The notes under the pieces were generated by a model, which was not told the origin of the DNA, ran no database searches, and saw only the letters and a program-made list of their open reading frames with translations. Shown here in pieces: positions 1 to 39,238 of a stretch of DNA of 39,935 nt (the first letter of the stretch is position 1; every line of letters begins with the position of its first letter). Both the position numbers and the translations under genes were made by a program. Source of the DNA: a virus (lineage: Duplodnaviria > Heunggongvirae > Uroviricota > Caudoviricetes); the IMG/VR virus record IMGVR_UViG_2623620502_000008. One strand, written 5' to 3'.

Positions 1-1719
1 ATGATTTTTAGGGATAGCTTGAGAGTATTACCTTATGGTCGAGTAGATAATGATTTCTTCCAGATAGAAGAAAGACGTTCATGGAATGCAGGGCGATATT
101 ATTGGTCTAATAGAAGGATTTTTGGTTATATTGGAATTACTCAATCCAGTAATAAAGAGCTGAAAGATAAGTCGGGGAGAGAGGGATTCATAAGAAACCA
201 GGCTGCAAGAGAACTGAAAACTATTATATCTAATTTGTTAACTGAACTTGCTGATAGATTTTTTGGTTCACGTTCTGATGACCGTAAAGAGCTTTTAGAA
301 CAAGTTAAGCGTGAAAAAGAGTTAAGAAAATCTGCTCAACAACAAGCTCGAAAATCAACACAAAAAAGTTTTTCAGAAGCTTTGAAGAATCAGACACCAG
401 TTCTTGATGCTTCCTTGGAGGCTGTTAAAAGGCTGAAAACTAAGCTTGATAAAACTGATGGTTCGTTAGATTTAAACTATCTTAAAATTATAGACAGTGA
501 TCTTACAAACTTAGATGCGTTGCGCAGTGAAATTAAAACGCCTATCAAACCTCCAAAACTTGGAATGTATGAAGAGAAATATAGAGACTACAGAGATAAA
601 TTTAATGAGTTCTCTGCGTATATTCTACAAATGAAGTTAGCAATTAATAAACTTGATTCTGAATTAAATAAACTTGAGCCTTCATTGTCAGCGAAAAATC
701 ACCTTGAAAAAAATCAAGGTATTATTAATTCTAAACTAACTAAGTTTAATAACACGATAGAGGAGAAGATACATTCTCTTTTAAAAAAATGGGCCGATGA
801 AATAAAGGTTGATCGAAGTGATTATTATGCTAAAACTATATCAGTTGTTGATTCAATAGATAATGATTCACAAATTGAAAATGTGTTTAATTTGCTCGAT
901 AGTTTATATGTTGAGTCAGTTGATACCCTAACTTTCAAATATCAATCAATAATAAAAGGTCTCGATAGATTATTTGAAGGTATAAACTTAGATTCAGCAT
1001 TCTCATTATCTGAAGAAGAACGCTCATATTTTGAAGAAAAAGCTAAAAGTTTAAACGCGCTTGCACAGTTAGGTATTAGTGTTGAGATAATATCTCATGA
1101 ACTTGAAGAAATGGATTCTATGGTAACCAGAGGACTAAACTCTCTTCCTACTTCTGTAAAAGAACACCCTGGTTTTTCATTGGCGTTAAATGCTCACAGA
1201 TCGCTTACTCAACAAATACGTTTCTTATCACCTTTGAAAATATCAGGTTATCAATCCAGGCAGAGAATAACTGGAAAAAATATCATGGATTATGTCCTGA
1301 AGTTCTTTGGGGAGCGTTTCGAACGGCAACGAATAACTATTGAATTTAGTGAAGAGTTTAAGCAAATCGCAATAACAGATATACCATCAAGGATCTATCC
1401 TGTTTTTACTAATATTATCAACAATGCAATGTATTGGGTCAGTCTGTCAAATAATAGGCTCATAAAGATTGGTTTTGTGAATTCTTTGGTTATCATAGCA
1501 AATTCTGGTCCGGCAATTGATACCGATGATATCCCGCGACTATTTGAACTATTTTATAGCAAAAGAGCAAATGGACATGGGGTAGGTCTGTATCTATGTC
1601 GAGAAAACCTTGCTGTTGCACATCATAAAATATGGTATTCAGAACCTGATGAAGGCGATAACTATTTAATAAAAGATGGCGCTAATTTTGTGATCCAGTT
1701 CAATGGAGTGGAGTTCTAA
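1..1719 (+). CDS. histidine-kinase-like ATPase (H-box-like motif plus GHKL/HATPase_c-like C-terminus; long coiled-coil-rich N-terminal part); possibly 5'-truncated by window edge
   Basis: ORF runs from base 1. Translation shows ISHELEEM (around nt 1081..1116) resembling the HisKA phospho-acceptor H-box, then IINNAMYW (N-box-like), DTDD...ELFYSKR and GHGVGLYLCRENL (D/G-box-like) at the C-terminus. Lys/Glu/Leu-rich heptad-like N-terminal region. Confidence 0.5.
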   Translation: MIFRDSLRVLPYGRVDNDFFQIEERRSWNAGRYYWSNRRIFGYIGITQSSNKELKDKSGREGFIRNQAARELKTIISNLLTELADRFFGSRSDDRKELLEQVKREKELRKSAQQQARKSTQKSFSEALKNQTPVLDASLEAVKRLKTKLDKTDGSLDLNYLKIIDSDLTNLDALRSEIKTPIKPPKLGMYEEKYRDYRDKFNEFSAYILQMKLAINKLDSELNKLEPSLSAKNHLEKNQGIINSKLTKFNNTIEEKIHSLLKKWADEIKVDRSDYYAKTISVVDSIDNDSQIENVFNLLDSLYVESVDTLTFKYQSIIKGLDRLFEGINLDSAFSLSEEERSYFEEKAKSLNALAQLGISVEIISHELEEMDSMVTRGLNSLPTSVKEHPGFSLALNAHRSLTQQIRFLSPLKISGYQSRQRITGKNIMDYVLKFFGERFERQRITIEFSEEFKQIAITDIPSRIYPVFTNIINNAMYWVSLSNNRLIKIGFVNSLVIIANSGPAIDTDDIPRLFELFYSKRANGHGVGLYLCRENLAVAHHKIWYSEPDEGDNYLIKDGANFVIQFNGVEF

Positions 1720-1720
1720 T

Positions 1721-3469
1721 ATGACAGTGGCAAATTATAATTCTCTTGTCCAGAAAACTTTCTGCGAAAATGCAATTCGTTCCGTTGTCATGATTGATGA
1801 CGATTTTCTGACGTATTCTGAATCAATCAGGGCGTTGAATAACGAAGTTGATTTAGACTACAACAAAATTGACTCATCTAAACGAGCCGCTACTCTTGAG
1901 AGCTTTTTTCAATCTAAGAATATGATTTGTGATGTTGACAATGGTTCTGTTAATTTCGATGTGGATCGGATTAGAAAATCAGATCTTATTATTGTAGATT
2001 ATCATCTTGATAATAATGCACCTGATAAAACACTTAAACTATTACAAGATTTGAAAGACTCCGATCATTTAAATATGATTGTAATATATACTAGAGAGAA
2101 TTTAGAAACGGTTTGGATGCAGATATCATCGACTCTCAAAGGTGCTCTGGATATCAACAGCTTGATCATTGACTACGATAATGAAGATGTCCAAAGTTAT
2201 TGGGAAGACGTTGTATTACCGAACTTAAATGATAATGGTAATAAAGCTCTCACAAGAGATGAAACAATAGCCTATATTAAAGACAGTAAGCCTTGTAGAA
2301 GAATTAAAAGATTAATACATGATGATGCTGTGTTGGAGGATCAAAAGGATAAAAACTTCATTGCAAAAATGATTGCAGAATATGCTGTGTCTAGAAATGC
2401 AATTATTTCTAGCAACACATCTGGCAATGTCATTCGGGGTGATGAAAGCGGAGTAAAATGGATTCAATGTGGTAATATCTTTGTCTCCCTATTTCATAAG
2501 GTTCAAGATGATCATGAAAACGATGGAGATAGGATTTGGCAAACTCTCAATGATTCTCTCATTGAATGGAAACCATCTTATTATCAGTTAATAAAATCTG
2601 AAATTCAGAATGCAATCGAAGCTGAGGCTTTATCTTTTGTAAATCATTTGGCTAACGATCATTACGGTCAAGCTGCGTGGTTAAATGAGATATTAAAATC
2701 AGACTCGCCTGATATTAGATGTAGAAATATTGACTTTGTATTTGGTAATTTATCAGAAGAGCTTTATCAAAGACTTAAAAATAATAATACGCTGGATGAA
2801 TTTATCAAAAGTGTTTTTGATAGCTATTCAAATGAATACGCTAACAGCGGAGTTGCTGCATTGCTCCAATATTGCTCTTCAAAAATGGATCTGCCATCAA
2901 ATAATGATACTTATCACGAAATGTATCATGCTTTAAATATGAATTTGTCTTCAAAGAATTTTGAAGATGGTCATATTTCTACTGGCACTATTTTCTTTGA
3001 TACAGAGTCGAACAAATGGTATTTATGTGTATCTGCGGCATGTGATTTGGTTCCTACTCAGGGTAACGACCCTCACCATGTAAGATTAAGTCCGCACAGG
3101 CTCATTAAAGTTCTGGAGCTTTTTAACGCCAGTCAGAGTAAAGCATTGCCATTTGCTGAACATTCGAAATATATATATGTAATGCATAAAAATCAAAGAA
3201 AATATCTCTCTATTTTCGAAGGGGATAAAACGCTTCCTGTTGTTGATTATATGGTGGTGTTGAATCATGGAACAACAGTTGATGGCGAAGAAAAAAATAT
3301 TATTTCTGCCGTGTTTTTAAGTAATATGGATGGCAACGTGCAAAATGTTCCTGTCCGACTCAAACTTAAATCTCAACTGAGAACTGGTTATGCAGAAAGA
3401 TATCAGGCTATAGCGTCTCAGTATAGCTCAAGGATTGGTGTGGATTATGTATCAATGATGCTACCATAA
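1721..3469 (+). CDS. receiver (REC)-domain protein fused to a roughly 450-aa C-terminal domain of unknown function (candidate effector)
   Basis: ATG at 1721 preceded by GGAG-rich sequence (alternative in-frame ATG at 1703). N-terminus has VVMIDDDF (acidic pocket), DLIIVDYHLD (phospho-acceptor Asp context) and MIVIYTREN (conserved Thr) in the order and spacing of CheY-like receivers. Rest shows no motif I recognise. Two-codon gap/overlap with upstream gene implies an operon. Confidence 0.5.
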   Translation: MTVANYNSLVQKTFCENAIRSVVMIDDDFLTYSESIRALNNEVDLDYNKIDSSKRAATLESFFQSKNMICDVDNGSVNFDVDRIRKSDLIIVDYHLDNNAPDKTLKLLQDLKDSDHLNMIVIYTRENLETVWMQISSTLKGALDINSLIIDYDNEDVQSYWEDVVLPNLNDNGNKALTRDETIAYIKDSKPCRRIKRLIHDDAVLEDQKDKNFIAKMIAEYAVSRNAIISSNTSGNVIRGDESGVKWIQCGNIFVSLFHKVQDDHENDGDRIWQTLNDSLIEWKPSYYQLIKSEIQNAIEAEALSFVNHLANDHYGQAAWLNEILKSDSPDIRCRNIDFVFGNLSEELYQRLKNNNTLDEFIKSVFDSYSNEYANSGVAALLQYCSSKMDLPSNNDTYHEMYHALNMNLSSKNFEDGHISTGTIFFDTESNKWYLCVSAACDLVPTQGNDPHHVRLSPHRLIKVLELFNASQSKALPFAEHSKYIYVMHKNQRKYLSIFEGDKTLPVVDYMVVLNHGTTVDGEEKNIISAVFLSNMDGNVQNVPVRLKLKSQLRTGYAERYQAIASQYSSRIGVDYVSMMLP

Positions 3470-3540
3470 TTATTATATTTTAGGCGTGGTGATTTTTTTT
3501 CGCCATGCCTATTTTATATTTATCATCACAATGATGTTGT

Positions 3541-3957
3541 TTATTTTTGTTTAAGTCTTCTAAGCTTCATGCATTCTAATGAGAATAATAATAGAGTTGT
3601 GCTGTATATAAAGCCAGAGTTAGTTAATAACTTTAAATTTAATGCTTCAGGATTTTCACTGAGAAAGTGAAAGGCATAAACTAAGTATACAGCTAAAGTA
3701 GTCGTTCCAATTGTTGGTCCAATATCGCCTTGATCATGAGGTTCAAGGTTTACATTGAACTTGAAGATTAGCCATTCAAATCCCCAAGTAAAAAAAACAA
3801 CTAATATCATGGCTGCGAATAATTTCGCGATGTTATCTGCTGATGGATTCATCAGAACAGATTGTTTCTGAAAAAATTCACAAAGTGAGAGTCCGAAAAA
3901 AATAAAAAAAAGTGGTCTGGAACTAAATTTTTCAAAAACTTTGAATAGGGTTTCCAT
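3541..3957 (-). CDS. small integral membrane protein (about 4 predicted TM segments), hypothetical
   Basis: 138-aa ORF with hydrophobic stretches (LFFIFFGLSL, AAMILVVFFTWGF, TTTLAVYLVYAF, GFIYSTTLLLFSL); AT-rich; immediately downstream of and co-oriented with the P4-type integrase. Confidence 0.4.
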   Translation of the reverse strand: METLFKVFEKFSSRPLFFIFFGLSLCEFFQKQSVLMNPSADNIAKLFAAMILVVFFTWGFEWLIFKFNVNLEPHDQGDIGPTIGTTTLAVYLVYAFHFLSENPEALNLKLLTNSGFIYSTTLLLFSLECMKLRRLKQK

Positions 3958-3995
3958 TTTCTTTACCTTCAGGATTATATTAGCTATTCTGATAC

Positions 3996-5267
3996 TTAGG
4001 CTACCAGAGCATTTGATCTTTGAGCTTGAACGTAATCACTCCACCATTGCATCAAACTCTGTCGCTCTATCAGATATTCTGCACGATTGTATGCTGCGAT
4101 AATTTCATCTTTTTTCGAGTGGGCAAGCGCTGCCTCAAGAACTTCAGCTCTGAATTTACCAGACTCCTCTGCCGCTGTTCGTGCAATAGAACGCATACCG
4201 TGAGCTACAAGCTCGCCTCCGAACCCCATTCGGATGATAGCTGCGTTGGCTGTTTGTTCATGCATATGATTAAGAGGCGCTTTTATGCTGGGGAAAACCC
4301 ATTCTCTATGCCCACTTATTGATTTCATTAATTCAAGGATGCGCAAAGCTTCTTTACTCAAAGGAACTTTGTGAAGCTTTTTCATTTTCATGAAATCAGC
4401 AGGAATGTTCCAAATGCTGTTGGTTGTATCAATATCAGACCACCTTGCGCGAACGGCTTCACCCGGACGAACCCATGTCAACAATTGCCATTCAATTAGC
4501 ATACGTGTTTCCAACCGGATTGACGCATTCGTCAAAGATTCCATAAACCTTGGCAATTCGCTTGGGGGAAGGGCAGGCATATTTTGCTTTTTTGGTTTAC
4601 TGAATCTTTGACCAAGGTTGTCAGCCGGGTTGAACTCAATAAGTTCTTCAGTAGCTGCCCACCGGAAGATTTCATTCAGACGTGAAATGATACGGCGTAG
4701 AGTTTCCAATACGCCTCGTTGCTCAATAGGATCAAGGTGTTGTTTTAAGAGCTTAGGTCGGATCTCATTGATAGGGACATTACCCAGACCGGGAAAGACA
4801 TTTCTCTCTAAGCTGCGCCAGATGTCTGCTGCATGGTCTTGTGAGATACCTGATGTCTTTACCTTCTCATCTAACCATTTCCGCGCTACGGCTTGGAGAG
4901 TGTGCTCAGTAGCACTCTTTAATGCCTTCGCCTTATCGTTGTTATGGATTTGGGGATCAACACCATTTGCCAGAAAGGAGAGATATTCATCACGTAAGGC
5001 TCTGGCTCTTGCAAGGGTAAGGTGAGGATATGTCCCAAGGCTCATTTTGGTTCTTTTCTTGCTCACTGGTACTGCATACCTGAAATACCAATTTTTCTTG
5101 CCTCCTTTCGCCAAAGGAGCGATTCGTAGAATCAGACCATCACCGTCAAACAAGTTGATTTCTTTATCGGCTGGCTTGGTGCTTTTGATTTCAGTGTCAG
5201 TGAGCTTCTTAGCGATTTTTGCCATTTTGGGACCCTCGGTTTTTGGACCCTTCTTAGTGGGTCCCAT
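3996..5267 (-). CDS. tyrosine recombinase, P4-type integrase (IntA-like)
   Basis: 423-aa ORF; N-terminal LTDTEIKSTKP...LFDGDGLILRI...WYFRY arm-binding-type motif typical of P4-family integrases; C-terminal catalytic region with HGMRSIARTAA and AHS...Y. Internal ATG at 5225 (MAKIAKK...) may be the true start. Located beside the ssrA att repeat. Confidence 0.85.
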   Translation of the reverse strand: MGPTKKGPKTEGPKMAKIAKKLTDTEIKSTKPADKEINLFDGDGLILRIAPLAKGGKKNWYFRYAVPVSKKRTKMSLGTYPHLTLARARALRDEYLSFLANGVDPQIHNNDKAKALKSATEHTLQAVARKWLDEKVKTSGISQDHAADIWRSLERNVFPGLGNVPINEIRPKLLKQHLDPIEQRGVLETLRRIISRLNEIFRWAATEELIEFNPADNLGQRFSKPKKQNMPALPPSELPRFMESLTNASIRLETRMLIEWQLLTWVRPGEAVRARWSDIDTTNSIWNIPADFMKMKKLHKVPLSKEALRILELMKSISGHREWVFPSIKAPLNHMHEQTANAAIIRMGFGGELVAHGMRSIARTAAEESGKFRAEVLEAALAHSKKDEIIAAYNRAEYLIERQSLMQWWSDYVQAQRSNALVA

Positions 5268-5390
5268 TCAGGGTGCCATAACTCGTAGTTCTCAGCAATT
5301 CTCACTGGACGACAATAGACGTAAAAAAGCCCGCAGAGCTTGTGCTGTGTGGGCTTAGTAGACTTCATTGAACTTCAAACAACTAAAAAG

Positions 5391-5435
5391 TGGTGGAGCT
5401 GGCGGGAGTTGAACCCGCGTCCGAAATTCCTACAT
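5391..5435. repeat. attL: 45-bp direct repeat identical to the 3' end of ssrA (displaced tmRNA 3' fragment)
   Basis: tggtggagctggcgggagttgaacccgcgtccgaaattcctacat occurs at 5391..5435 and at 38876..38920; flanks diverge immediately outside. Confidence 0.85.
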
Positions 5436-5520
5436 ACCATTTTCACTATAGCAAAAACATTAACTTGCGTTTAAAATCAGTAAGTTAGTATTATCTTGTG
5501 TTTGTCCGTTTTACTCATTT

Positions 5521-6567
5521 TTAATGTTCTGTCGCCAATCTGTCGCCATTGTAGGTCAACGAAGGTTGAGCCTTCCCTTTGTTTGTTACAATTTCATCAA
5601 AGATAGCTGGATTATTATCTTTCAGTAATCTTGCTAGTATAATGATTTGCCCAGACGAGCCATCATCCTTGAATGAAAGGAAATTATCGGTAATATCAAG
5701 AATATCAATGGTAAATTTGAAGTAGGTTTCAATTGTATCGCCAAGTTCAATGCTGGACATGAAGTTAGTAATCATTTCATATCCATCAAAGTATAAAGTT
5801 GCATGTTCATTTAACTCCATGGGAGTTAGGCAAAGCATTCGATTAAGTTCGGATAAGTGTTTTTCTATTGAATGAAGAGATTGCATTTGACGGATTAAAA
5901 CTTCGGCAAACTGAGAGCCACGATTAGATGAATGTATCTTCTCTAGGTTTTTTAGTATATCAACCCAGTGATTATTTACTTCACGTATGTATTCTTTATC
6001 TGTATTTTTAGGCCGTCCCTTCTCTGGTGAGCTATTTATGAAAATATATCTATATAGATGTATTGGGTAGTTTATTTTATAACTTATCTCTTTAGTACCA
6101 TAATGACGTTCGCGTTTAATGGTTTTGTTAGGTAAATTGGTGAAATAATCAGTAACGAACTTTAAATGGCTATAGTAGCTATCAGATAGATTCTTTTGCT
6201 TGGTTTCCTCAATTTGTCGGTTTGTTTGAACTGTGCGGTGTATGTTTGCTACGACAGCAACAAATGGTATGGACAAAGAAAGTAAGGCGATAGGAAGCTT
6301 GCTAATTGCAATGAAATTATTAAAGCCCTCACTATCAAATTGAGGGGAATGTCCAAGCCAGGAAAATATACCAAAGTATATCGCTGAAAATACAGGAATC
6401 CTAAGTGATTGTTTAAATAAGTATTGACTTGTTAATGGCCTTTCATCCATGTTAAAGCCTTTTTTTGATACGCATAGATATAATTCAAGGCATATATATA
6501 AAAAATATATTATGATAAGTAAGTACGATATCCATGGGTATTGTTGGATATAGTTATTAACAAGCAC
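5521..6567 (-). CDS. membrane-anchored hypothetical protein (3 N-terminal TM helices plus about 230-aa soluble domain); prophage cargo between int and attL
   Basis: 348-aa ORF, AT-rich; start overlaps the int stop by 11 nt (same strand, suggesting translational coupling); TM segments YLLIIIYFLYICLELYLCV, IPVFSAIYFGIFSWL, IALLSLSIPFVAVVANI. Confidence 0.5.
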   Translation of the reverse strand: MLVNNYIQQYPWISYLLIIIYFLYICLELYLCVSKKGFNMDERPLTSQYLFKQSLRIPVFSAIYFGIFSWLGHSPQFDSEGFNNFIAISKLPIALLSLSIPFVAVVANIHRTVQTNRQIEETKQKNLSDSYYSHLKFVTDYFTNLPNKTIKRERHYGTKEISYKINYPIHLYRYIFINSSPEKGRPKNTDKEYIREVNNHWVDILKNLEKIHSSNRGSQFAEVLIRQMQSLHSIEKHLSELNRMLCLTPMELNEHATLYFDGYEMITNFMSSIELGDTIETYFKFTIDILDITDNFLSFKDDGSSGQIIILARLLKDNNPAIFDEIVTNKGKAQPSLTYNGDRLATEH

Positions 6568-7597
6568 TTTCTAATTTTCTCCATCCAAGGTTAGCAAGAG
6601 GATTTTTGGTTACAGCATCTTCCAGATGGTCGGGAGCGAAGTGGGCGTAAATCATTGTCATTTTTATATCGACATGGCCCAGAATATCGCGCAGCACCAG
6701 TATGTTTCCGCCATTCATCATAAAGTGACTTGCAAATGTATGTCGTAATACGTGTGTGCATTGCCCTTCTGGTAGCTCGATACCAGCTCGTTTTACCGCA
6801 CGTTCAAAAGCTTTCCTACAAGGTGTAAATAATTTTCCCCTATTCTTAGGCAGTTCTTCATATAAATCCTTTGAAATAGGCACTGTTCGGTTTTTCTTTC
6901 CTTTAGTCTTGGTATAAGTGATACGGTATTTTGATACCTGATGACTCTGTAGGTTTTCGGCTTCGCTCCAGCGTGCGCCGGTGGCCAAGCATATTTTTGC
7001 AATCATCAGCAGACTGGGGCTTTGAGAATCAGCACAGGCATCCAGCAGACGTTTAATTTCTTCCGGGGTCAGGAACGCCAATTCACCCTCAGCAATTTTA
7101 AATGTTGGCAGCCCAGCAAGCGGGTTGGGGGCTGACCAGTGGCCCAGCTTTTTCAGTGTACCAAAAACAGATGATAGGTTGCGCTGTTCAAGATTTACCG
7201 TGCGGGGCTTAACGGGCGACATAAGCGTGCCATCTTCATTTCGTACTTCACCTTTTAACCGTGCTTCGCGGTATTTCGTAAACTCACCAGCTGTCAGTTC
7301 TGAGGCGATGGGATCGCCTAGACCATTACAGATAATTCTAAGTTTCGCCATGAGGCGCTTGGGGTCTGCGAGTGTTTGACCATACAGGGAATACCACAGC
7401 TCAATTAATTCTGATAGATGTCGCCGATCTTCCTTTTCCCCTAGCCATGGTTTTTTGTTCACTTCTTCCATTGTGAAGCTTTCAAACGCAATGGCTTCGC
7501 CTTTGGTAGCAAATTGCTTACGCACGCGCTTACCATTGCGTCCATTGGGATAGCACTCACACAACCATTTTCCGTTCGGCTGTTTTCTGATGGTCAT
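6557..7597 (-). CDS. int: phage integrase (P2/186-type tyrosine recombinase)
   Basis: 346-aa ORF; catalytic region motifs ATGARWSE, HVLRHTFAS, and MIYAHF; position next to cI and near attL. Confidence 0.9.
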   Translation of the reverse strand: MTIRKQPNGKWLCECYPNGRNGKRVRKQFATKGEAIAFESFTMEEVNKKPWLGEKEDRRHLSELIELWYSLYGQTLADPKRLMAKLRIICNGLGDPIASELTAGEFTKYREARLKGEVRNEDGTLMSPVKPRTVNLEQRNLSSVFGTLKKLGHWSAPNPLAGLPTFKIAEGELAFLTPEEIKRLLDACADSQSPSLLMIAKICLATGARWSEAENLQSHQVSKYRITYTKTKGKKNRTVPISKDLYEELPKNRGKLFTPCRKAFERAVKRAGIELPEGQCTHVLRHTFASHFMMNGGNILVLRDILGHVDIKMTMIYAHFAPDHLEDAVTKNPLANLGWRKLESAC

Positions 7598-14391: not shown

Positions 14392-15306
14392 TTGGCAACG
14401 GATCTGAACTCAATGGCGGATAAGACTCAATCAGTAAGTATTGTGTATCAAGGCAAAGCTCTCGACGATCATAAGATGGATATTCTTTCGTTTGCGAAAA
14501 GTTTGCAGGGGCTAGGTGAGGCTATCTACTCTGCAAATGAGATTGTAAACGGAGGGCGAGACATTGAAGTTAACGTTGACGCTGAATTGATAGCCGGTTC
14601 CTTTGGGTTTGATATTGAGGTTGTACAACATCTAGCTAATGCTAAAGATGTTGTACAAATTTTAGGTTTGTCAGCCATTCCTTTAGCCGTTGGCGGTGCT
14701 ACAGTTTTAGAGGTTCTCAAGAAGCTTAACGGGCGTAAGATCGACATAGTCGAGAAAGCTAACGGTAGTGACAAAGTTAAGCTGAAAGTCGATGGTGAAG
14801 AGATTGTTTGCTCTGAAGATGTCGAAAAAATCGTTAATGCCCCAGAGATTCGTAAGGCTGTTGACGCGTTTGTCAGACAGCCTCTGTTACAAGATGGTAT
14901 CGACAATTTTGTGGTAAAAAAATCGCGCACCTCTAAGAAAGAAATCCTCAAAATTCATAAAGATGAGGCAGAAGAGTTTAAGTCGCCAAAAGTTCTCTTT
15001 GAAACCAAAGAAGAAGTTGACGAATTTGAAACAACCGTGACATTCGTTTCGGCGCATACTGACAAAAAAAGTGGCTGGCGTGTTGAGTTTGGCGGTGAAA
15101 AGCGCAATGTCAGAATGGAAGATAATGAGTTCATCAAGCTTGTTACTGGACCAGACGCCCCCAAAATTTTTGGCGAATTGTTTGCTGTGAAGATGAAGAA
15201 AATTGTGAAAGATTCCGGTGGCCAGGTAGACGAAAAGTTATCGATCATCAAAGTGGGTCGACACTTTGCCGCCAAAGATAGAAAAATAAAACCTGATGCG
15301 GATTAA
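14392..15306 (+). CDS. hypothetical soluble protein (cargo; first gene of 3-gene cluster)
   Basis: 304-aa Lys/Glu-rich ORF with no motif I recognise (alternative start 14413); at the position of P2 tin/old accessory genes (after A, before cos). Confidence 0.45.
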   Translation: MATDLNSMADKTQSVSIVYQGKALDDHKMDILSFAKSLQGLGEAIYSANEIVNGGRDIEVNVDAELIAGSFGFDIEVVQHLANAKDVVQILGLSAIPLAVGGATVLEVLKKLNGRKIDIVEKANGSDKVKLKVDGEEIVCSEDVEKIVNAPEIRKAVDAFVRQPLLQDGIDNFVVKKSRTSKKEILKIHKDEAEEFKSPKVLFETKEEVDEFETTVTFVSAHTDKKSGWRVEFGGEKRNVRMEDNEFIKLVTGPDAPKIFGELFAVKMKKIVKDSGGQVDEKLSIIKVGRHFAAKDRKIKPDAD

Positions 15307-15308
15307 AA

Positions 15309-15572
15309 ATGTCTATAGATATTAGTGTGTTAGGATGGTTGGGGCTGCTTGTTGCAGCTCCAGCTATATTTATAGGTGCTAGAGTGGCTATACGTAGCCT
15401 GCTCGATCGAGTTATTGTCGAAACAAAAGTTTCTATCACTTATACTGATGCAAACAAAAATGTCTATAAAACAAATATTTATATAAACAATGATGATGAG
15501 TTAATAAAGCTCATCGATGATATAGCAGAGAAAAATAAGCGTGAGAGGAAGGAGTCAGCCTCTCATGCCTGA
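15309..15572 (+). CDS. small membrane protein (single N-terminal TM helix), hypothetical
   Basis: 87-aa ORF starting 3 nt after previous stop; TM segment LGWLGLLVAAPAIFIGARVAI. Confidence 0.4.
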   Translation: MSIDISVLGWLGLLVAAPAIFIGARVAIRSLLDRVIVETKVSITYTDANKNVYKTNIYINNDDELIKLIDDIAEKNKRERKESASHA

Positions 15573-15981
15573 ACAAAAGAAAACAAGCGGTAAAGCAGTC
15601 GGTGTTACAGGTGGCGGCGGTGTAGGCCTTTTCCTAATAAAGCTGGCTAGCTTCATTACAGATCCAACATGGAAAGACCTTTACATTGCTTCAATACCGA
15701 TGGTGTCAATTCTTTTAAGCGAAGTTTTTACTTTTGCATGGACGATTTATGCTGTTGATCCGCAAGAAATCAAACTGAAAAGGCGGTTGAAGGCTCTGAA
15801 GAAGCAAGCCGAAGCAGTTTTAAATGCACCATCGTCCCCTGTTTCTCCAGAAATGCGAGAGAAAGCGCAGGCTCGTTACGACGTGATCTGTGGAATTGAA
15901 ATGGGAATTTACCCCCTCTCAATTGTAAATACGCTAGATGGAAAAGTATCCCCCACAGCGCAAACGCCGGACGTTAAATAG
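15565..15981 (+). CDS. small membrane protein (2 predicted TM helices), hypothetical
   Basis: ATG at 15565 with aggaaggag RBS, overlapping previous stop; Gly-rich then hydrophobic segments (GVGLFLIKLASFI; IPMVSILLSEVFTFAWTIYAV). Confidence 0.4.
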   Translation: MPEQKKTSGKAVGVTGGGGVGLFLIKLASFITDPTWKDLYIASIPMVSILLSEVFTFAWTIYAVDPQEIKLKRRLKALKKQAEAVLNAPSSPVSPEMREKAQARYDVICGIEMGIYPLSIVNTLDGKVSPTAQTPDVK

Positions 15982-16044
15982 CAGTTTCTACTTTGCATGT
16001 CTATGCTGCATGAAATCGCATGATCGTTTGAGGATCGTTTTTGC

Positions 16045-16073
16045 AAAAGCCCGCCAGAACTGGCGGGCTTTTG
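16045..16073. terminator. rho-independent terminator-like hairpin (A-tract/GC stem/T-tract)
   Basis: aaaagcccgccag-aa-ctggcgggcttttg, perfect 9-bp GC-rich stem flanked by A and T runs, downstream of the 3-gene cluster. Confidence 0.5.
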
Positions 16074-16117
16074 CGTAGAGCATGCATCTGCATGAAAACC
16101 ACTACATAAAGCGGGCA

Positions 16118-16136
16118 GGCGTGGCGGGGATACGAG
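16118..16136. other. candidate cos (cohesive-end) site of the prophage
   Basis: ggcgtggcggggatacgag; first 13 nt match my recollection of the P2/186 cohesive-end sequence (GGCGTGGCGGGGA...); located in the non-coding stretch between the late-accessory region and the portal side. Confidence 0.3.
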
Positions 16137-16224
16137 CGCGCGCATTGAGTTAAAATTTCTTGAGTTGATGAAAATAAGATGTATTTTAATTTGGCACAGA
16201 AAAACCTAATAACTCACAAGGATA

Positions 16225-17160
16225 ATGATAATAATGCAAATAGTTTCCATCATAAATTATAAAGGTGGCGTTGGTAAAACAACAGTTACGTCTAATTTAG
16301 CCGCTGAATTAGCATTCCGAGGAAAGAATGTTTTAGTTCTGGATATGGATGCTCAGGCAAGCCTGACATTTTCGTTTCTAACTCCCGATTATTGGGATGA
16401 ACATCTTAAAAATGAAAGGACCATTAAAAACTGGTTTGATTGTATTAGTCAGGGAGAGCAAACAATGCCTCTTTCGACTCTAAGAGTACGACCTGAACCT
16501 GTTAATAGTAGATTTGATAGAAAAGGTGGATGTTTGGATTTAATATCTTCCCACCTCGGGTTGATAAATGTTGATCTTGAGCTTGCGACTCTTCTAGGAG
16601 GGGCTAGCCCCAGTCAAACTCAAAAAAAATATCTTAAAGTTCATGGTAAACTTAGAGAGGAACTTCAAATACTAGCTGACGAAATGAATTATGATGTTGT
16701 TTTAATTGATTGTCCACCTAACTTTAATATCGTAACAAAAAATGCTTTGATTGCATCAGATAAGATTTTGATACCAGCAAAACCTGATTATTTGTCAACG
16801 CTAGGTATTGATTATTTAAAAAGAAGCGTAGATTCTCTAGTTACAGACTATAATTTCTATGCCGATAAAGATGAAGATTATGAAAGGGTATCTCCTGAGA
16901 TTCTCGGAGTAGTTTTTACTATGATTCAAATTCATTCAGAACAACCTATTGCCGCGCAAAGACAGTATATTGCGCAGACAAAACGTCTAGGTGTTCCCGT
17001 ATTTGATGCTATTTTTAGGGAGAATAAAACTATCTTTGCTGATGCCCCTAGAGATGGAATTCCTGTAGCATTAATTGGCTACTCGCATTCAACTCACTCT
17101 TCTATTGTAGGAGAGATTGAGGATTTTGTTGATGAATTCCTTCAAAAGATTGGAGAATAA
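16225..17160 (+). CDS. ParA/MinD/Soj-family P-loop ATPase (deviant Walker A)
   Basis: 311-aa ORF; NYKGGVGKTTVTSNLA deviant Walker A near N-terminus (likely start at ATG 16234), DMDAQ (A'-like) and VLIDCPP (Walker B-like); strongly AT-rich. Confidence 0.7.
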   Translation: MIIMQIVSIINYKGGVGKTTVTSNLAAELAFRGKNVLVLDMDAQASLTFSFLTPDYWDEHLKNERTIKNWFDCISQGEQTMPLSTLRVRPEPVNSRFDRKGGCLDLISSHLGLINVDLELATLLGGASPSQTQKKYLKVHGKLREELQILADEMNYDVVLIDCPPNFNIVTKNALIASDKILIPAKPDYLSTLGIDYLKRSVDSLVTDYNFYADKDEDYERVSPEILGVVFTMIQIHSEQPIAAQRQYIAQTKRLGVPVFDAIFRENKTIFADAPRDGIPVALIGYSHSTHSSIVGEIEDFVDEFLQKIGE

Positions 17161-17162
17161 AA

Positions 17163-17558
17163 GTGAGTAAAGCTAAAACTTTAACTGTGCTATTTCGTGA
17201 ATTACAAGATGCAGTTCTTGAACTCAATGAAGGGGAATTGGAAAAAATTATTTCAGGCGAGTATCAATTCGTCCTTAAGGTAGTTAAAAAACGTAATAGT
17301 ACTGGTGCAAAGATAAGTTCAGTAGATAATTTTAGCTATAACGAATTGCTTGTTTTACTTAACCAGTGTGAGTCAAGAGAACAAGGTTGCGAGCTTTTGT
17401 CGCGTGAGCTTAAGACTAAATCTGAGTTTGAAAAATTCGCTCGTCATGTCGAGGTCGCTGTAATGAAAAGCGATAAACTCGAGAAAATTAGAGATAATAT
17501 TATTGAGTCGACAGTAGGTGCTAAACTCCGTTCTGATGCTATTCAGAATAAAAAGTAA
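17163..17558 (+). CDS. hypothetical protein, partner of ParA-like ATPase (helical, charged)
   Basis: 131-aa ORF with GTG start 2 nt after ParA-like stop, ggagaa RBS; no recognisable motif. Confidence 0.45.
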   Translation: MSKAKTLTVLFRELQDAVLELNEGELEKIISGEYQFVLKVVKKRNSTGAKISSVDNFSYNELLVLLNQCESREQGCELLSRELKTKSEFEKFARHVEVAVMKSDKLEKIRDNIIESTVGAKLRSDAIQNKK

Positions 17559-38875: not shown

Positions 38876-38920
38876 TGGTGGAGCTGGCGGGAGTTGAACC
38901 CGCGTCCGAAATTCCTACAT
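38876..38920. repeat. attR: 45-bp core identical to attL, forming the functional 3' end of ssrA
   Basis: Exact copy of 5391..5435. Confidence 0.85.
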
Positions 38921-39238
38921 CCTCGGTACTACATGCTTAGTCAGTCTTTACATTCGCTTGCCAGCTGCGGACGGACACGCCACTAACAAACTAGCCTGAT
39001 TAAGTTTTAACGCTTCAACCCCAGGCAGGGCTTCCACGCGATCTCTTTTGGGTTTGACCTCTCTTGATCCCCGTCCTAAGAGCGGAGGCTAGGGAGAGAG
39101 GGCTCTAAGCAGGTTATTAAGCTGCTAAAGCGTAGTTTTCGTCGTTTGCGACTATTTTTTGCGGCTTTTTACGAGGCCAACCGCCCCTCGGCATGCACCT
39201 TGGGTTTCGCAAATCCCGTCGAATCCAGAATCAGCCCC
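38876..39238 (-). ncRNA. ssrA: tmRNA (transfer-messenger RNA, SsrA)
   Basis: Minus-strand sequence begins GGGGCTGATTCTGGATTCGACGGG, contains the tag ORF GCAAACGACGAAAACTACGCTTTAGCAGCTTAA (ANDENYALAA*) at 39117..39149, and ends ...GGGTTCAACTCCCGCCAGCTCCACCA. Confidence 0.9.

Follow-up and report, generated by a model that had tools for sequence, protein, structure and literature searches.

The DNA analysed here (the window, 39,935 nucleotides in full; IMG/VR virus record IMGVR_UViG_2623620502_000008) begins with two adjacent genes, ORF1 and ORF2, both on the plus strand, which encode a histidine-kinase-like ATPase and a receiver protein and lie in a low-GC island beside a P4-type integrase. 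The window is E. coli chromosome, with 100% identity to strain VG12A2 over positions 1–5500. We read the pair as the 3′ remainder of a three-gene phosphorelay module that is linked to restriction-modification (R-M) and sits on an island integrating at ssrA. In the window the pair would most likely be an inert relic; we give this reading a probability of roughly 0.7.

Pfam detected a HEF_HK domain (PF19191; 26.1 bits, above the gathering cut-off of 24.1) and a catalytic HATPase_c domain (PF02518) in ORF1, and a Response_reg_2 domain (PF19192, E = 3.7e-31) in ORF2, confirming the histidine-kinase-like ATPase and receiver pair proposed in a preliminary description of this DNA. The motifs quoted there were all found in place, including the H-box histidine of ISHELEEM (nt 1096–1098) and the acceptor aspartate within DLIIVDYHL. 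The His-Glu pair of the H box is at least 95% conserved among 44 family kinases; together with the N box (NIINNAMYW) and the G2 box (GHGVGL) of the HATPase_c domain, the kinase chemistry of ORF1 is retained at the sequence level. The N-terminal HATPase_c_3 (paraMORC-like) domain is absent from ORF1 by Pfam. Pfam likewise found neither a sensor on the kinase, whether membrane or PAS/GAF-type, nor a DNA-binding output on ORF2, in line with the preliminary description, which had also placed the genes correctly in a low-GC island next to a P4-type integrase at a tmRNA site: the kinase/receiver stretch is 32–35% GC and a 45-bp ssrA repeat is present. An NCBIfam scan of both proteins returned generic kinase-domain matches alone, far below family cut-offs, and a PADLOC scan gave no defence-family match at E<0.01.

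The receiver (REC) domain of ORF2 holds a full phospho-acceptor set, comprising the acidic pair D26/D27, the acceptor D93 (nt 1997–1999), T124 and K260 (nt 2498–2500); this quintet is invariant in the family alignment, and the REC fold was confirmed by a structure model. The roughly 300 residues after the REC domain are uncharacterised. ORF2 nonetheless has 108 full-length homologues, conserved along the whole length, and conserved polar residues mark the effector half (N406, T423, C441, D442, R554, R571 and D575). The large C-terminal module that the preliminary description could not assign stands as described, as residues ~285–582 matched no Pfam family beyond Response_reg_2 in any of 35 members scanned.

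Table 1 Features of the window discussed in the text.
Feature	Position	Strand	Remarks
ORF1, 5′-truncated histidine-kinase-like gene	1..1719	+	572 aa as annotated, WP_000577254.1
HEF_HK (DHp-like) domain	1066..1242	+	Pfam PF19191, residues 356–414, E 1.2e-5
HATPase_c catalytic domain	1384..1659	+	Pfam PF02518, residues 462–553, E 1.8e-11
ORF2, receiver-effector gene	1721..3469	+	582 aa (RefSeq start), WP_000214990.1
Receiver (REC) domain	1775..2500	+	interrupted by a helical insert at residues ~145–226
All-helical linker/bundle domain	2579..2950	+	residues 287–410, from structure models; conserved SEIQN motif; no Pfam or PDB sequence match
Beta-rich C-terminal domain, putative effector	2951..3430	+	residues 411–570; conserved TGT, ACD, SQLR, RIGVD
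Terminator-like hairpin and T-run	3481..3521	+	starts 12 nt past the ORF2 stop
Hydrophobic ORF, 138 aa	3541..3957	-	no family match; inside ~505-bp insertion
P4-type tyrosine integrase, the island's own	3996..5267	-	annotated form 409 aa, end at 5225
att site of the island	5391..5435	-	45 bp, identical to the ssrA 3′ end; also one end of the P2-like prophage
Complete ssrA (tmRNA) gene, integration target	38876..39238	-	

The organization of intact relatives was read from a survey of 58 loci on one-genome-per-species contigs, in which open reading frames were scored with phmmer. The closest intact relative retrieved (locus L002) comes from another enterobacterial genus (smpB nucleotide identity, 77%), where it lies beside ssrA/smpB on an island with an integrase of the same type, and its operon encodes a 389-aa C5 cytosine methylase, a 991-aa kinase with HATPase_c_3 at residues 28–139, and a 582-aa receiver protein that is 87% identical to that of the window. 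Further intact operons were found in Pantoea (L003) and in E. coli SE15 (L004); all three run in the order methylase, kinase, receiver, and the gene tables of the three loci list no stand-alone receiver gene. Of the 47 loci in which kinase and receiver are both complete, 44 have the methylase next to them, directly before the kinase or directly after the receiver gene. A separate nuclease is missing from most loci, with an HNH_2 gene as an occasional extra, leaving methylase, kinase and receiver as the conserved unit. In 24 of the 58 loci a gene for the Vsr mismatch endonuclease adjoins the system, which argues that the methylase is active.

Family kinases are almost all 970–1010 aa long and consist of a MORC-like GHKL+S5 ATPase head, a coiled coil, HEF_HK and HATPase_c; the head displays the conserved Bergerat motifs ExxxNxxD, DxGxG, GxxGxG and GT as well as a conserved S5 region. 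The relatives' methylase matches PADLOC Type II MTase models (8.5e-82), and the GHKL head of the kinase matches the N-terminus of one PADLOC Type II REase (REase_II) model (E = 1.6e-9). The family spans Proteobacteria and other phyla. A gene of ~195 aa without a Pfam match was observed directly upstream of the methylase in L002 (3128–3715) and L003 (5127–5711), with 51% identity between the two; it also occurs in L006 and L007 and is not found in distant loci.

Set against these operons, the window copy is truncated. The E. coli sequence aligns with residues 380–991 of the L002 kinase at 88% identity without a gap, the annotated 572-aa ORF1 corresponding to residues 420–991 of an intact paraMORC-HK of ~991 residues. 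In VG12A2, an IS3 end lies 121 bp upstream of window position 1, and the ORF1 frame is open right up to the IS3 terminal repeat. The open frame and the gap-free alignment together indicate that a deletion took kinase residues 1–379, the methylase and the 5′ end of the operon. Residues 1–379 make up the MORC-like ATP-binding head, and the break cuts through the middle of the head domain's conserved S5-like region. No C5 methylase was found in the window or upstream of it in VG12A2, where the ygaQ pseudogene and glaH come straight after IS3. Judged by these alignments, the missing HATPase_c_3 head is a secondary loss within the same family. That methylase and sensor were lost together is expected if loss of the methylase alone were lethal, a single deletion of both being survivable.

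IS3 sits at the kinase break in most carriers, its transposase gene directly upstream of ORF1 and on the same strand; at the new 5′ end of the remnant, no promoter-like site rose above chance. Lacking the sensor head, the methylase and a promoter signal at its 5′ end, the window pair is probably silent or inert, and any expression could come by read-through from the transposase gene. At the junction itself, the IS3 copy (L001 13622–14882) has no 3-bp target duplication, the left flank reading TTC and the right flank CGC, and one draft E. coli genome (L063, ~4162) has the identical junction without IS3 and without the three bases CGC. These observations are compatible with an IS3-associated deletion, after which IS3 was excised along with three flanking bases in some lineages, the order of events being unproven.

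The remnant is present in 560 of 5,426 complete E. coli genomes (~10%), both ORFs being intact in the window and in most of these carriers. A close copy (>80% identity) of the L002 methylase and kinase head occurs in none of the 5,426; that search found solely a paralogous system at 72% identity. The paralogous operon is intact in 212 complete E. coli genomes, including SE15, in which (L004 8102–15294) it encodes a methylase of 398 aa, a kinase of 989 aa and a receiver of 607 aa, followed by HNH_2. The SE15 HNH_2 gene is annotated as a phosphorothioated-DNA-binding restriction endonuclease, and the element that carries the operon also encodes ArdC and a MobH relaxase. Measured against L002, dN/dS is 0.05 and 0.08 for the two retained genes, denoting strong long-term purifying selection; E. 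coli copies differ from one another by 0–3 substitutions, so that a within-species test of selection is powerless. In EC5502 (L064, 4721–6471) the remnant receiver gene is annotated as frameshifted, the sole further decay among the few carriers inspected. A 5.6-kb contig labelled as a Bacteroidales metagenome-assembled genome (L005, DAIPZW010000118.1) is 100% identical to the E. coli remnant and is almost certainly a mis-binned E. coli contig.

PDB profile searches with full-length and beta-domain alignments of the receiver protein produced zero matches even at E≤10, and Foldseek with the whole receiver model against the PDB produced nothing significant. A phmmer search of the effector half among 1.84 billion representatives recovered only 264 relatives, essentially all REC-fused or fragments. 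No second architecture for the C-terminal domain was found by Pfam among 10 odd-length homologues, and short ‘stand-alone’ C-terminal matches resemble fragments or decayed loci, such as the 248-aa remnant beside Vsr at L057. The best fold matches of the effector domain in model comparison were MazF/CcdB. An hhalign comparison of the beta domain with five MazF-type sequences (approximate queries) was negative, with a probability of 0.2%, and neither sequence-profile similarity to MazF/PemK/CcdB nor the catalytic Arg/Thr of MazF was found in the domain. Because the profile-profile comparison was negative, the toxin-like barrel is a fold-level lead and no family assignment is made; tentatively, the modelled effector domain resembles MazF/CcdB by fold alone. 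Pfam, PDB and fold searches gave no sign of a nuclease fold in the receiver protein.

Across Enterobacterales, the kinase appears better conserved than its receiver partner in homologue tables whose pairings are not locus-matched: kinase identity is 83–86% in Salmonella, Klebsiella and Serratia, and the best named Salmonella, Enterobacter and Citrobacter receivers reach 58–59%. The gap in sequence identity may mean that the effector evolves faster or has been swapped.

The pair belongs to the HEF_HK/Response_reg_2 family by both defining Pfam domains, and the family is already known: it is published, it has Pfam entries, and both exact proteins are in RefSeq. The Pfam entries PF19191 and PF19192 go back to a single computational study by Bellieny-Rabelo, Pretorius & Moleleki (2021; PMC8011034), in which kinase and receiver genes were linked in 91.6% of 644 regions, E. 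coli members appeared among the examples, and a strong tie to C5 cytosine methylases, Vsr and other R-M genes was described. The architecture HATPase_c_3 + HEF_HK + HATPase_c was reported for 174 of 222 kinases, with the C-terminal HATPase_c in 93.7% and the N-terminal HATPase_c_3 in 83% of the family, the latter domain being absent from 34 of the 222 (PMC8011034). Its authors proposed a cytoplasmic ‘TCS-like’ system without transmembrane regions, suggested descent from paraMORC ATPases (Iyer et al. 2008) and speculated on a regulatory link to R-M systems (PMC8011034). The window copy agrees with this family in that both Pfam domains score above threshold, the genes are adjacent and co-directional and the kinase is soluble; it departs from the norm in having neither HATPase_c_3 nor a linked methylase, through the deletion at the IS3 site. 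The C-terminal half of the receiver lay outside the published analysis, in which a regulatory rather than an effector role was proposed (PMC8011034). What is added here is that the ssrA-island copy is a truncation product, that the methylase is part of the conserved unit, and that the output domain has a tentative fold. No experimental test of the family was found in the literature searched.

The head and neighbourhood of the intact kinase also match the paraMORC R-M systems of Iyer, Abhiman & Aravind (2008; PMC2292703), in which GHKL+S5 modules occur near cytosine methylase, Vsr and HNH genes. In the present family, by contrast, the head forms one protein with a complete histidine kinase, whose partner is a receiver where paraMORC systems have helicases or RE-fold nucleases; the window copy has lost the paraMORC module. 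The DefensePredictor paper lists a predicted, unvalidated HATPase+REC system, which may or may not belong to the same family. MADS and WonAB were considered as identities and rejected as unrelated on their published descriptions.

Pgl/BREX type 2, which comprises the methylase PglX, the protein kinase PglW and the phosphatase PglZ, shares the concept of joining self-marking by methylation and signalling by phosphorylation in one defence operon. It differs in its Ser/Thr kinase, its PglZ and its N6-adenine methylase, and none of its components is known to be homologous to those of the window family.

The preliminary description had gone further and suggested that the pair could be a divergent or new member of the anti-phage phosphorelay class to which Detocs belongs. 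Novelty has to be given up, since both domains became Pfam families through the 2021 paper, which treats this very gene pair and cites examples from E. coli (PMC8011034). The defence association survives insofar as the family sits in R-M and defence contexts, but the pair is neither Detocs nor a near relative of it, having no PADLOC match, no buffer receiver and another effector. A third gene, whose presence upstream was also suspected, does exist in intact relatives; it is a C5 methyltransferase rather than an Hpt or REC protein, and was deleted here together with the kinase head.

Could the pair nevertheless be a divergent Detocs member whose third gene lies outside the window? Detocs, from Rousset et al. 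in 2023, is said to consist of the kinase DtcA, the buffer receiver DtcB and the receiver-PNP effector DtcC. The resemblance is real, in that each has a soluble kinase and a His-Asp relay ending on a receiver fused to an effector, not to a transcription factor or DNA-binding output, and each resides on mobile or defence islands. In the window family, however, the intact relatives have no stand-alone REC gene, a C5 methylase being the third gene and an obligatory partner; the sensor is a MORC-like GHKL head instead of TPR; and the effector is unrelated, as neither nucleoside phosphorylase nor any other known Detocs effector domain was found in the receiver protein by Pfam in 35 members. PADLOC-DB v2.0.0 gave no match at E<0.01 for ORF1, ORF2 or the SE15 receiver, and for the L002 kinase only the REase_II match of its GHKL head, though this release may lack Detocs models. 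We consider membership of Detocs highly improbable. Somewhat less so, but still improbable, is an ordinary host regulatory two-component system that controls gene expression or a neighbouring R-M system. The canonical look of the kinase and receiver chemistry would suit it, as would the regulatory R-M link suggested by the family's authors (PMC8011034). The receiver protein, however, matches no DNA-binding or other known output domain, the distribution is accessory (an AT-rich island with an integrase, present in ~10% of E. coli), and the conserved unit of methylase, kinase and receiver comes without a separate nuclease in most loci; on this ground the receiver protein is itself the likeliest effector, and less probably controls some other gene.

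The inert-relic reading has its closest competitor in the proposal that the truncated pair is a working, sensor-less two-gene module that would correspond to the ‘group 2’ architecture HEF_HK+HATPase_c of PMC8011034. Such a module could be driven by IS3 read-through, for which the same-strand transposase directly upstream is suitably placed, and would either sense some cue via what is left of the coiled coil or switch the effector as a phosphatase/kinase. Family kinases without the N-terminal domain provide precedent (34 of 222; PMC8011034), and the H box, N/G boxes and REC quintet are all preserved. The intact reading frames of most of the 560 carriers point the same way, but the copies are near-identical, so that intactness may mirror recent ancestry, and a frameshifted allele exists. 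Moreover, the protein starts in the middle of the S5-like region with the ATP-binding half of that domain gone, the methylase partner that adjoins 44 of 47 loci is missing, and no promoter signal exceeds chance. We therefore judge a working module unlikely and retain the reading of the window pair as an inert relic.

For the intact family, we infer a working model as follows. The methylase would mark self DNA. The MORC-like GHKL+S5 head would be the DNA-facing sensor, undergoing ATP-driven dimerisation on unmodified or foreign DNA; ATP-dependent dimerisation is typical of the MutL/MORC/GyrB class of ATPases. Dimerisation of the head would trigger autophosphorylation at the H-box histidine, the phosphoryl group would pass to Asp93 of the receiver, and the phosphorylated receiver would free the C-terminal toxin-like domain, halting the infected cell or the invader. 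A bolder reading, which we hold to be rather unlikely, is that the family constitutes an unvalidated class of methylation-gated immunity, with a MORC-like clamp that senses unmethylated foreign DNA, a His-to-Asp alarm and a receiver-caged toxin of putative MazF/CcdB fold.

Downstream of ORF2, the terminator-like hairpin is the operon end; the terminator search returned 2 sites against 0.2 expected from shuffled sequence. An AT-rich insertion of ~505 bp (3491–3995) separates the receiver gene from the integrase and is absent from the intact L002 island; the hydrophobic ORF inside it is probably outside the kinase/receiver system. The integrase abuts the 45-bp ssrA repeat. Beyond the repeat, a complete P2-like prophage occupies ssrA (5436–38875) between exact 45-bp repeats (5391–5435 and 38876–38920), and carries genes for an integrase (6557–7597), a CI repressor, a replication protein, a portal and a terminase. 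As this prophage sits in ssrA, it sets the kinase/receiver island apart from that gene by one more element, in a tandem array.

The prophage has cargo regions of its own. The slot in which P2 usually carries cargo, flanked by the att repeat and the P2 integrase, holds an ORF (5521–6567, minus strand, 310–348 aa) without a Pfam family and with a weak PADLOC ‘2TM effector’ match (E = 2e-4); the same slot in other E. coli strains holds a gene annotated ‘anti-phage dCTP deaminase’. A second, low-GC cargo region (14413–17558, plus strand) includes an ORF of 297 aa (14413–15306) that matches the PADLOC candidate defence family PDC-S42 (E = 8.8e-44), a ParA-like ORF (16234–17160) with a weak match to PDC-M28B, and three small neighbouring ORFs without a match.

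Since the window pair is a broken copy of a family with Pfam entries, it should neither be counted as a new system nor cloned as it is. The interest lies in the family, which joins a DNA cytosine methylase, a MORC-like ATPase, that is, a prokaryotic relative of the eukaryotic chromatin-silencing MORCs, and a complete His-Asp relay in one conserved operon. The MazF/CcdB-like fold suggested by model comparison supplies a concrete hypothesis for the receiver output module, and the intact SE15-type operons of 212 complete E. coli genomes make the family directly testable. If the reading as methylation-gated immunity is true, the family would be an R-M system in which a phosphorelay that leads to growth arrest takes the place of a nuclease as the ‘R’ arm, and the E. 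coli remnant could be a naturally ‘disarmed’ effector pair, of use as a control, or might retain a sensor-independent activity.

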